Virus record (IMG/VR): IMGVR_UViG_2703718787_000016
DNA from: a virus
Lineage: Duplodnaviria; Heunggongvirae; Uroviricota; Caudoviricetes
DNA length: 38,561 nt
Direction: 5' to 3' (one strand)
Both the position numbers and the translations under genes were made by a program. Positions within the stretch are counted from its first letter, which is position 1. Every line of letters starts with the position of its first letter. The notes under the pieces are model-generated. The model was not told the DNA's origin, searched no databases, and worked only from the letters and a program-made list of their open reading frames with translations. This document shows positions 21,340 through 23,705 of this stretch, one piece after another.

Positions 21340-23385
21340 ATGGTACCGAAACATTATCAGCTTGTGACGGCAATGACGAACAAGGAACTTGCCGAAAAAC
21401 TTGCGCCCATGCTCAGGGAAGGATGGGGACTTCTTGGGGGACCTGTCTCAGCATCAGAGCCGGGAGCACCATTTTACCTGATGCAGGCACTGGTCACTGA
21501 CAGAGACCTGCCATCAGCCATTCCGGTACCAAAAGGCGAGGAAAACCCCGTACCGGGCACTACCGACGGATACGACACTGGACACACAACTGAGCCAGAG
21601 TTTTATTATGTGGTGCCACTGGCTGGTCAGTCCAATGGCATGGCATACGGTGAGGGGCTGCCATTACCCGATACATTCGACAGTCCTGATCCACGAATTA
21701 AACAGTTAGCGCGTCGCAGTACGGTAACACCGGGCGGCGCTGCATGTACCTATAACGATATTATTCCGGCAGATCACTGTCTCCATGATGTACAGGATAT
21801 GAGCAGCCTTAATCATCCGAACGCCGATCTGTCAAAAGGTCAGTATGGCTGCGTCGGACAGGGTTTACATATTGCCAAAAAATTACTGGCGTTTATCCCG
21901 AAAAATGCAGGGATCCTCCTGGTACCTTGCTGTCGTGGAGGGTCAGCGCTTACTTCCGGCGCTGAGGGGGCATTCAGTGAATCTTCAGGAGCAACGGCCG
22001 AATCATCCCTGTGGGGCGTCGGCAAACCGCTGTATAACGATCTGCTTACCCGTACAAAAGCCGCGCTGGATAAAAACCCCAAAAACGTCCTGTTATCCGT
22101 GGTCTGGATGCTGGGAGAGTTTGATCTGAAATCAGCAACATACGCACAGCACCCGCAATTATTCCTGAACATGGTGAATCAGTTCCGCGCCGATCTCAGC
22201 GCATATGCTGCACAGTGCACCGGAGGCAACGCATCACTTGTTCCCTGGATTTGCGGCGATACCACCTATATCTGGAAACAACAATATACCTCTCAGTACC
22301 CGGTGGTTTACGGTGCATATCAGAACAAAGAAGCGCAAAAAATTTATTTTGTGCCCCTGATGACCGATGAGAAAGGTGCTAACACGCCAACAAACCTGCC
22401 TGCCGAAGATCCTGACCTGGCAGAAGCCGGTTATTACGGTGCTGCATCCCGTAGTAACGGAAACTGGACCTCTTCAGATCGCGCCACGCATTTCAGTTCA
22501 TGGGCCCGCCGCGGCATTATTTCTGACCGCCTGGCAACGGCGATCCTGATGCATGCCGGGAAGACCGTCGCCTTCCTGAAAGGTGCACCCGCACCGTTCA
22601 GCGTGGTCGCAGCACCTCCAGCCACGGCCGGTTCAGACAGCACCACCACGGAAAGCCCGCAGCCCTCCACACCTGCACCTCAGCCGGGCGCAGGTACGCA
22701 GTCATCACCGGCAAGAACAACGGCCGTCGCTTATCGCGCAGACGCACAGGAAGGGAAACTGAAAGAACAGGGCTGGACAGGGGCAGATGGAAAAGCCTCC
22801 GTCGTAAATGACTCTGCTGCTCAGAGCGGTAAAGCCGTGCGAGTGGAAAAAGTCCAGGGGCAACAAACAGCCTGGAAAATCGCCCACGATGTGCCTGCAA
22901 GTAAAGCAACTGAATTACTTCAGAAAGGCGGGGAAATTGCCTTTCGTTTCAAAATCCCGGAAGGTGTTCAGCTGGCAGAAAACCGCTTCGCCATGGCTCT
23001 GTACTGGCCGGTTTCTCAGCTACCTGAAAACGTTGTTCCGGAGGGAAGCACAGGAAACAATATGCTGGCAGCCTTCTTCATCCAGAGCGACAGCGCAAAC
23101 CTGAATCTGATGCAGCACAAACAACAGAATGCAAAACTGGGAACCTTCGGGGCATTTAATCATAACTGGCACAACGTGGTGTTCCGGTTTGCCGGAAATA
23201 ACAGCATCAGCGTGACACCGGTCATCAACGGTCAGACCCAGGCGGCCTTTAATCTGGCGAAATGCCCGGCGGCAGGACTGGATAACGACAAACTGCTGAT
23301 CACGGATATCACCAGTAACAAGGACACCTACCCCGTGCTGATTGAGTATGTGACGGTGGATATCAATAACAGCAACGCCGCATAA
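21340..23385 (+). CDS. NanS-p-like multidomain esterase (DUF1737-like N-terminus plus SASA/SGNH sialate O-acetylesterase domain plus C-terminal domain), a moron in the late operon
   Basis: GQSN motif (VVPLAGQSNGMAYGEG) characteristic of the SASA esterase family; DUF1737-like N-terminus (WGLLGGPVS); low-complexity Pro/Thr/Ser linker; about 200-aa C-terminal domain. GGAG Shine-Dalgarno motif before the ATG at 21340. Absent from canonical P2 at this position. Confidence 0.7.
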   Translation: MVPKHYQLVTAMTNKELAEKLAPMLREGWGLLGGPVSASEPGAPFYLMQALVTDRDLPSAIPVPKGEENPVPGTTDGYDTGHTTEPEFYYVVPLAGQSNGMAYGEGLPLPDTFDSPDPRIKQLARRSTVTPGGAACTYNDIIPADHCLHDVQDMSSLNHPNADLSKGQYGCVGQGLHIAKKLLAFIPKNAGILLVPCCRGGSALTSGAEGAFSESSGATAESSLWGVGKPLYNDLLTRTKAALDKNPKNVLLSVVWMLGEFDLKSATYAQHPQLFLNMVNQFRADLSAYAAQCTGGNASLVPWICGDTTYIWKQQYTSQYPVVYGAYQNKEAQKIYFVPLMTDEKGANTPTNLPAEDPDLAEAGYYGAASRSNGNWTSSDRATHFSSWARRGIISDRLATAILMHAGKTVAFLKGAPAPFSVVAAPPATAGSDSTTTESPQPSTPAPQPGAGTQSSPARTTAVAYRADAQEGKLKEQGWTGADGKASVVNDSAAQSGKAVRVEKVQGQQTAWKIAHDVPASKATELLQKGGEIAFRFKIPEGVQLAENRFAMALYWPVSQLPENVVPEGSTGNNMLAAFFIQSDSANLNLMQHKQQNAKLGTFGAFNHNWHNVVFRFAGNNSISVTPVINGQTQAAFNLAKCPAAGLDNDKLLITDITSNKDTYPVLIEYVTVDINNSNAA

Positions 23386-23531
23386 GAAAAAAGAGGCTCC
23401 CGGCAGGCAAGACTGAGAGGAAAAGATACCTGACGGGAGCGCAAGAGGAATTATGGAGAGTGTTTATTATTGTTATTCATTTTTTTTAAAACGCCAGACA
23501 TCGTTATGTCAATCATTTGTGTGAGGTGATT

Positions 23532-23705
23532 ATGTTATTCATTCATCAGATCATGCTGTATTTCTGTACTGCAGTCTGCGCGCTGTATCTGATCAGCGGC
23601 GGTTACAGTGTTATCAGAAATTATTTTCAGCGAAAAATTGACGAGCGCGCCGCTGAAAAAATCAGTCAGAAGTCTGCACAACAGAACAACCAGAACATGC
23701 CATAA
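23532..23705 (+). CDS. Small membrane protein (57 aa), AT-rich, upstream of gpR
   Basis: GAGGTG Shine-Dalgarno motif then ATG; one hydrophobic segment (LYFCTAVCALYLISGGY) and a charged tail; preceded by an AT-rich promoter-like spacer. Confidence 0.35.
   Translation: MLFIHQIMLYFCTAVCALYLISGGYSVIRNYFQRKIDERAAEKISQKSAQQNNQNMP

Follow-up and report, generated by a model that had tools for sequence, protein, structure and literature searches.

So far, nanS-p has been regarded as accessory to Shiga toxin (Stx) and other lambdoid phages, a gene that is tied to the fitness of enterohaemorrhagic Escherichia coli (EHEC) in mucus. NanS-p enzymes are active on the sialic acid Neu5,9Ac2 and on mucin glycans and give lysogens a growth advantage, the activity having been shown for the alleles of EDL933 and O104:H4 only (PMC8065619). 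In lambdoid prophages the gene is reported to lie between Q/stx and the lysis genes, and its transcription rises by 1-2.4 log upon addition of mitomycin C (PMC10462455). In phage phi24B, which has a T=9 capsid, the NanS-p protein gp84 was described as abundant in virions, where DUF1737 hexamers sit on the central hexons and cleavage in the linkers removes the remaining domains (preprint 10.64898/2026.04.10.717836). Here we describe a NanS-p-family gene in a P2-family prophage, contained in the IMG/VR record IMGVR_UViG_2703718787_000016 (38,561 nt; this whole stretch is called the window in the following). An earlier reading of the same DNA from its letters alone, the sequence-only reading, had proposed that a NanS-p-like sialate O-acetylesterase moron is inserted between the lysis cassette and the tail-completion genes R and S. 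We find that the gene occupies a recurrent, optional slot between lysC and R of the P2-family late operon and is not a one-off insertion. Furthermore, it is a mosaic, in which a DUF1737 head found only in P2-type operons is joined to an esterase-lectin body that has been exchanged with lambdoid alleles through recombination within the conserved core.

The window contains a complete E. coli prophage of the P2 family (Peduoviridae), which is flanked by a DUF2138 gene and by serS. The P2-type gene set and order were established from library matches and from the RefSeq annotation of a 99.9% identical locus (L001). The genes follow one another as int, C, cox, A, Q, P, O, N, M, L, X, lysis genes, R, S, V, W, J, I, H, G, tail operon, D and ogr. 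The product of gene N matches Phage_cap_P2 (E 1e-119) and gpR matches P2_Phage_GpR (E 5.7e-40); further family matches in the prophage are Phage_tail_S, Ogr_Delta, Phage_Cox and the integrase. Between the stop codon of lysC and the start of R at 23721 there are exactly two genes, the esterase open reading frame (ORF) and a DUF1378 ORF (Table 1).

The esterase ORF starts at an ATG located 10 nt beyond the lysC stop codon, with a GGAG Shine-Dalgarno sequence 6 nt upstream. An alternative in-frame ATG at 21319, giving 688 aa, was rejected, as it overlaps lysC, lacks a Shine-Dalgarno sequence and is used neither by RefSeq nor by the homologues. The 681-aa protein matches PHROG 143 over its full length (E 2e-294) and has 1562 homologues, nearly all of them from E. 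coli/Shigella; its cluster at 90% identity (P0011) comprises 744 member sequences. RefSeq names the esterases in the P2 slot 'DUF6645 domain-containing protein', and an NCBIfam search of the protein gave no match.

Judged by these matches and those in Table 1, the protein is a full three-domain member of the NanS-p family with a predicted esterase function. It consists of a DUF1737 head, a NanS-like SGNH/SASA core and a lectin-like C-terminal domain, which are connected by two linkers. The head shows the pattern …TAMT..EL..K…GW.L.G…EPGxPFYLMQA… of a subfamily specific to P2 operons. In the core, the Pfam SASA family is matched partially (aa 163-287, E 2.1e-9). The second linker contains 44% Pro/Ser/Thr, and the C-terminal domain matches Pfam DUF6645 (PF20350) at aa 527-643 with an E value of 6e-40. 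AlphaFold modelling with 37 homologues as input (mean pLDDT 68) predicts a beta-alpha-beta-beta fold for aa 5-53 of the head (pLDDT 74-82), in agreement with the description of the phi24B head by cryo-EM, and a confident beta-sandwich for aa 459-676 (pLDDT ~90). Four aromatic residues have been proposed to bind sugar in the phi24B protein's C-terminal domain (PMC10462455); three of these positions are aromatic here (F550, Y555, F580) and the fourth is Leu647. Thus, the elements that the sequence-only reading had listed are borne out, i.e. a 681-aa ORF after lysC on the same strand, a DUF1737-like N-terminus, a GQSN motif, a Pro/Ser/Thr-rich linker and a C-terminal domain of about 200 aa; the hidden Markov model search that it had suggested finds the DUF1737 and SASA domains, and the match to the NanS-p architecture is far beyond chance.

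The same three-domain architecture is present in the NanS-p proteins of Stx/lambdoid phages (933W L0105/Z1466; phi24B vb_24B_21, i.e. gp84; solved structure 6YP6), to which the protein is 54-59% identical over the full length, 73% in the core and 50% in the C-terminal domain. In contrast, the chromosomal NanS (YjhS, 3PT5) is a single-domain protein of the sialic acid regulon that has neither a DUF1737 head nor a lectin-like domain and is homologous to the core (aa 84-404) only. Block definitions from PMC10792757 and PMC9487903 and alignments to NanS/NanS-p homologues were used for the catalytic residues. The SGNH blocks of 3PT5 are GQSNA (Ser19), RGGSAF, MQGEFD and SHFS (His301), without an acidic residue (PMC10792757); the aligned blocks are GQSNG (Ser98), RGGSAL, MLGEFD and THFS (His384). 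The GQSN motif seen in the sequence-only reading thus holds the nucleophile Ser98 within a core that aligns to NanS. Ser98, the Block II Gly and His384 are invariant in both homologue alignments. Of the Ser-His-Asp residues that were to be confirmed, Ser and His are kept and the Block V Asp is absent. NanS itself lacks this Asp (PMC10792757, PMC9487903), and the triad is therefore unsuited as a test.

Table 1. Features of the esterase locus, followed by other features of the prophage, in window coordinates
Feature	Position (nt unless marked aa)	Strand	Basis or remark
NanS-p-family sialate O-acetylesterase gene, 681 aa (predicted function)	21340-23385	+	Pfam, PHROG and solved-structure matches; RefSeq WP_071343136.1 in L001
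DUF1737 head module, aa 1-56	21340-21507	+	Pfam PF08410 at aa 4-53, E 1.8e-7, above gathering score
Linker 1, aa 57-84	21508-21591	+	disordered in model (aa 57-83), pLDDT ~30; unalignable between alleles
SGNH/SASA esterase core, aa 85-404	21592-22551	+	NanS/YjhS 3PT5 at aa 84-404, E 5.5e-119; moderate model confidence
Block I GQSN, aa 96-99	Ser98 21631-21633	+	within motif LAGQSNGMAYGEG at aa 94-106
Block II RGGS	aa 199-202	+	Gly201 kept
Block III WMLGEFD	Leu258 22111-22113	+	Leu where Gln is conserved
Block V THFS	His384 22489-22491	+	no Asp, as in NanS
Linker 2, aa 405-459	22552-22716	+	Pro/Ser/Thr/Ala/Gly-rich, SSP motif; disordered in model (aa 408-457)
Lectin-like jelly-roll C-terminal domain, aa 460-681	22717-23382	+	NanS-p 6YP6 at aa 460-676, E 8.4e-60
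Exchanged body	21594-23590	+	93% DNA identity to nanS-p and the start of DUF1378 in lambdoid 933W-type prophages
AT-rich spacer, 146 nt	23386-23531	+	GC 0.40 against 0.53-0.58 around; inherited together with lambdoid-type body
DUF1378 gene, 57 aa	23532-23705	+	Pfam PF07125 E 3.5e-27; PHROG 494; single-pass membrane peptide
P2-type lysis cassette	19964-21329	+	Phage_lysozyme E 2.6e-20; LysC E 8.4e-11; PHROG holin, endolysin, Rz-like spanin; RefSeq L001
Holin	19964-20260	+	
Lysozyme	20238-20789	+	
lysB-like spanin	20759-21211	+	
Embedded lysC	21000-21329	+	stop codon 21327-21329
Tail-completion genes R (23721-24188) and S (24172-24816)	23721-24816	+	directly after lysC in empty-site relatives
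TGT-N12-ACA dyad, likely Ogr-dependent late promoter element	16292-16309	+	divergent P/O intergenic region, in front of O
Integrase	582-1589	-	early region also with C-type repressor, Cox and replication genes

The second gene of the insert is the 57-aa single-transmembrane ORF that the sequence-only reading had seen behind an AT-rich spacer and before gpR; it was identified as DUF1378, and its peptide has one hydrophobic segment (aa 3-21). Since a DUF1378 gene is the regular downstream neighbour of lambdoid nanS-p, we regard the esterase and DUF1378 genes as a two-gene cassette. Several P2-type lineages likewise have the small gene behind the esterase, whereas the P88-type lacks it there.

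In its place relative to the lysis genes, the locus departs from the lambdoid arrangement. The order Q - (stx) - nanS-p - DUF1378 - DUF826 - holin - lysozyme - Rz was found in a 933W-like prophage (L002), JLK-2012, 933W, phi24B, one Citrobacter prophage and one further E. coli prophage. The location of nanS-p downstream of the lysis genes in lambdoid Stx prophages, as given in the sequence-only reading, is therefore incorrect, the gene being upstream of the holin and after Q/stx. Late-gene neighbourhood to the lysis cassette is common to both phage groups. However, since lambdoid nanS-p precedes the holin, with DUF1378 and DUF826 between them, and the gene of the P2-family, myovirus-type prophage sits in the lysC-R slot on the other side of the cassette, the two positions are not equivalent as had been assumed.

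An empty slot is present in phage P88 (Xuanwuvirus), where the lysB annotation ends at 18978 and R begins at 19116; the gap of ~140 nt, which has no other gene, is presumably the unannotated end of lysC. Five distantly related loci of Erwinia, Mixta, Enterobacter and Izhakiella have an empty slot as well; in these, the lysB/lysC ORFs end 4-9 nt before R. These five, with gpR 54-57% identical, are all that a gpR scan of genome contigs returned and are not close kin. Filled slots, in contrast, are frequent in E. coli. The arrangement of the window was found at an identity of at least 98.7% in 12 of 5426 complete E. coli genomes, and the junction of the P88-like lineage, with a 625-aa homologue in the same slot and no DUF1378 gene, in 375 of them, including ST131. 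L019-type (14/5426) and L018-type (2/5426) lineages have filled slots as well. In all, at least five or six diverged P2-family lineages carry the gene, in about 400 of the 5426 genomes or ~7% if there is little overlap between the lineage counts. Thus, other P2-like prophages do carry a gene at this position, as the sequence-only reading had suggested checking. Its proposal of an insertion stands insofar as the esterase gene and the small ORF are extra DNA compared to the empty-site phages, but the slot is filled in several lineages and the gene is not an isolated moron.

The P88-like esterase (Xuanwuvirus; e.g. WP_000202148.1 in ST131) shares slot, head subfamily and architecture with the window protein and is 50% identical to it overall, and likewise 50% in the head. 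It differs by the sequence QGE in Block III, and its body is kin to the lambdoid allele group JLK-2012/434 (~80%). The idea that the ST131 copy is a pseudogene was discarded: this ORF was simply cut short where the record ends, and other copies are intact. A megablast search of deposited phages with a 9.5-kb region returned no P2-type relative, only pieces of nanS-p, and no paper mentioning NanS-p in P2-like phages was found. As a separate observation, in four P88-type loci (L039, L044, L047, L052) the esterase ORF is shortened to 218-286 aa, with the DUF1737 head and some of the core retained, and in two of these (L039 and L044) R comes sooner after the ORF. They are deletion or frameshift derivatives, and the gene is therefore dispensable in some lineages.

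The mosaic structure of the gene becomes apparent when its parts are compared separately. For the 271 nt from 21330 to 21600, i.e. head and linker, blastn matches are confined to the 12 E. coli genomes with the P2 context. The remainder, in contrast, is closely related to the lambdoid L002 gene (WP_000874434.1; E. coli 2012EL-2448 and three other genomes from E. coli that produce Shiga toxin, STEC), with protein identities of 96% in the core, 89% in the linker and 94% in the C-terminal domain; the 93% identical DNA includes the spacer and the first 59 nt (~20 codons) of DUF1378. The L002 protein shares the LGE sequence of Block III with the window allele but has a head of the 933W/phi24B type and lies in a lambdoid prophage. 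The P88-type protein shows the same pattern, its core and C-terminal domain being 86-87% identical to those of JLK-2012, while its head is the best match of the window head in the whole phage collection (50% identity, E 3e-9).

Head identities were computed pairwise, the head columns of a first MAFFT alignment being out of register and discarded. The 14 distinct heads fall into two clean clusters: heads from the P2 context are on average 56% identical to one another and lambdoid heads 63%, whereas the mean between the two groups is 36%. Searches with the head alone gave one match in a word-indexed protein search and nine weak ones in an exhaustive HMMER search, by which two extra head variants were gained. 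A scan of IMG/VR viral contigs for the P2-type head returned 36 loci, all of which (36/36) have P2-family L and X upstream; the esterase abuts P2-type lysB/lysC in 35 of them, and R, S and V come next wherever the contig continues. When the context was predicted blindly from the head motif, four of four cases were correct, P0046 and P0101 lying in P2-type operons and P0055 and P0065 in lambdoid Q-S regions.

One locus (L026, 6001-8250) contains a joint within the gene. The first ~450 nt of its esterase are 99-100% identical to the P88-type, the sequence then becomes 97% lambdoid within the conserved core, and a lambdoid holin and lysozyme follow. Such hybrid joints point to recombination of co-resident P2-type and lambdoid prophages via the shared esterase core, or to chimeric assembly. 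Similar joints were observed in two IMG/VR loci (L038, L042), in which P88-type late genes are followed by a lambdoid-type body, holin, lysozyme and Rz. In the ST131 record PV468777.1 the prophage call breaks inside the esterase gene and includes host genes, which may have the same origin. A further mosaic of lysis and esterase modules is seen at L051 (5084-8230), where lambdoid-like lysis genes (lysozyme and Rz) in a P2-family L-X context precede a 746-aa esterase with a P2-type head (…SAPGTPFYLMQAVV…).

With regard to expression, neither a sigma-70 promoter consensus nor an intrinsic terminator consensus was detected on the coding strand from 19000 to 25500, although weak signals could be missed. 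A dyad of the Ogr type is located in front of O, and none was found from there to 23720. We therefore infer that the gene is part of an O...lysC-esterase-DUF1378-R-S late transcript, for which Ogr-type activation would be expected, as opposed to the Q antitermination of lambdoid nanS-p. The spacer RNA shows no significant folding (z = -1.7), and an Rfam scan of the spacer gave no family match. Furthermore, the 681-aa protein has no hydrophobic N-terminus or export signal, and its exit from the cell is therefore expected only at phage lysis. This fits the release on lysis put forward in the sequence-only reading, which itself stays a prediction.

Taken together, we consider it probable that the two-gene cassette in this optional P2-family slot provides a late-expressed mucin sialate O-acetylesterase that is released by lysis. 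The gene would be transcribed only with the late genes, from an Ogr-type promoter upstream of O, with R and S being read through the insert. The protein would leave the cell at phage lysis, free or still attached to particles, and would then de-O-acetylate mucin sialic acids, its lectin-like domain directing it to glycans. Surviving lysogens might gain from sialic acid made usable, released phage from movement in or adhesion to mucus, or both. Several points weigh against this explanation. The total of dyad matches in the window is that expected by chance, the one in front of O being assigned by its position only. Late-only expression is deduced from missing consensus signals, and weak or non-consensus promoters would escape such a search. 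The results do not separate a benefit to the lysogen population from a benefit to the phage. Finally, the (H)QGE motif of SASA Block III departs in this protein, with Leu258 instead of Gln, which had been overlooked in the sequence-only reading; the activity of this allele is therefore less certain, and that it acts as an esterase is predicted by homology.

The protein might instead serve primarily in the virion, its DUF1737 head docking on the centres of gpN hexons and its esterase and lectin parts being displayed, or later cleaved off, as a mucus-binding or mucus-modifying coat. We regard this as possible, if somewhat doubtful; it overlaps with lysis release of the enzyme in gene and timing and places the selected function in the phage particle. 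Apart from the precedent of phi24B gp84 (preprint 10.64898/2026.04.10.717836), it is favoured by the operon, which also encodes scaffold, capsid and head-completion proteins, and by the head itself, which is intact and conserved over variants diverged by ~50% (19 of 56 positions invariant), belongs to a subfamily exclusive to P2-type operons and is modelled with the same beta-alpha-beta-beta fold. Docking on the hexon centres of gpN shells has a precedent in Psu of P4, which binds there (PMC7602432). Psu on gpN shells, Hoc of T4 and pb10 of T5 are all optional hexon-centre decoration proteins, but they are functional analogues only, without kinship in sequence or fold; Hoc and pb10 mediate adhesion to mucus or cells (PMC7602432).

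However, the support from phi24B comes from a preprint. In addition, the window head lies in a separate subfamily that is ~36% identical to lambdoid heads, and the anchor loop of phi24B with its Tyr42 'tooth' (STAGYGAEF) is not conserved in it, the sequence here being SASEPGAPFY. As a control, 80 lambdoid loci with one head variant (96-100% identical) were inspected. The esterase is followed by either of two unrelated head-gene modules, a lambda-type one (gpA/gpB/gpC) or an HK97-type one with a different terminase and a protease-capsid fusion. There is thus no head-capsid specificity among these lambdoids, and the candidate rule that the DUF1737 head variant tracks the capsid type is ruled out in its strict form. 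Since this lambdoid head variant spans two capsid types, the P2-specific heads are explained equally well by tight linkage together with recombination confined to the core. That P2-family particles, including those of the P88-like prophages of ST131, have gpN hexons decorated by a DUF1737-anchored esterase/lectin, the P2 head subfamily being a capsid adaptation, is accordingly put forward as a rather doubtful proposal.

The Leu in Block III also raises the question of whether catalysis is impaired and the 681-aa allele acts chiefly as a glycan-binding, lectin-like or structural protein. The (H)QGE motif has been called universally conserved; it is described as holding Gln of Block I in place within the oxyanion hole and as required for activity in a related esterase (PMC9487903). 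The NanS-p proteins of 933W and phi24B as well as NanS have QGE at this position, and the lectin-like C-terminal domain, 94% identical to its lambdoid counterpart, would be available for such a role. Still, we think impaired catalysis unlikely. Ser98, Gly201, His384 and the oxyanion-hole residue Gln97 of Block I are all kept, and the core shows no decay, being 96% identical to widespread lambdoid LGE alleles. Among the 116 scorable of the 120 closest homologues, Block III reads LGE in 42, QGE in 73 and MGE in one; widespread lambdoid alleles whose ORFs are intact belong to the LGE group. LGE therefore looks like a tolerated natural variant that marks an allele group within the family.

A classical lysogenic-conversion moron, transcribed from its own promoter in the uninduced lysogen for the use of O-acetylated sialic acids, appears very unlikely. 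NanS-p genes do allow lysogens to grow on Neu5,9Ac2 (PMC8065619), some basal expression of nanS-p occurs without induction (PMC10462455), and the spacer and the DUF1378 gene are AT-richer than their surroundings. However, the basal expression could stem from spontaneous induction of a subpopulation, and an intracellular enzyme without a signal peptide would need its substrate to be imported. The gene shows none of the marks of a moron, i.e. a promoter and terminator of its own and a deviant composition: besides the lack of consensus sigma-70-like promoters and terminators, the junctions between lysC and the esterase gene (10 nt) and between DUF1378 and R (15 nt) are tight, each with a Shine-Dalgarno site, and the GC content of the esterase gene (0.534) matches the mean of the window (0.536), AT-richness being limited to the spacer and DUF1378. 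De-O-acetylation of bacterial glycans such as the O-antigen or a polysialic (K1-type) capsule, either for adsorption or for receptor destruction that frees progeny, has been raised for NanS-p in the literature (PMC8065619), has a precedent in viral haemagglutinin-esterases (PMC9487903) and would fit the virion association of the phi24B homologue, but is most improbable, as no NanS-p has given experimental support for it, the substrates demonstrated being free and mucin-bound O-acetyl sialic acids, and as the gene is absent from many functional relatives, e.g. P88, and hence is not needed for infection.

Some further observations concern the remainder of the prophage. The longest ORF for gpS begins at 24070 and overlaps R by 119 nt, whereas the RefSeq start is equivalent to 24172; PHROG 36427 (367 aa) extends over both genes, as though some phages had a fused R-S. 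The tail operon (29205-34789) is located between G and D on the minus strand, opposite to the other late genes, and comprises genes for the sheath (33593-34789), the tube (33084-33593), an E-like protein (32647-33036), the tape measure protein (29707-32535) and a U-like protein (29205-29741). The layout of L001 is identical. In P2, the tail operon genes run in the same direction as the remaining late genes. Strain JNEC-KY203, which carries L001, has an IS1 in place of integrase, repressor and cox (L001 2173-2870 compared to window 1-4073), and its left flank is ycaD and not the DUF2138 gene. This copy has lost its immunity and integration region, and its tail-fibre genes are partial according to RefSeq, whereas the copy in the window looks complete. 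A ParE-like toxin, a Dam-type methylase and a 3'-5' exonuclease are encoded in the early region of L001. Two genes for toxins of the Hok/Gef family lie between ogr and serS, at about 36541-36681 and 37013-37153 (deduced from L001 35842-35982 and 36314-36454). In a related P2-type prophage that also contains the esterase cassette (L134, 10244-11933), an element of the IS200/IS605 type with a Y1 transposase and an OrfB/TnpB-like gene splits the baseplate gene J.

Overall, the P2-family branch of the NanS-p family is widespread and, to our knowledge, apparently undescribed. The nature of the protein family is not changed by this finding, which will be useful to the specialist but not surprising. 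It does extend the reach of the family past STEC: P2-family prophages, too, regularly have NanS-p among their optional late genes, with a head subfamily of its own, in ~7% of the complete E. coli genomes including the pandemic ST131. The shared esterase core provides a recombination bridge between unrelated co-resident prophages, as seen in the hybrid P2/lambdoid joints. A DUF1737 domain that binds capsids would offer an alternative to a purely nutritional role; if this were true of the P2-family proteins, they would represent the first self-encoded decoration protein of Peduoviridae, and virions from unrelated families of temperate phages in gut E. coli would display mucus-targeting enzymes. 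The occurrence of the same body on different heads in different virion types constitutes a natural test bed for this capsid-binding claim.

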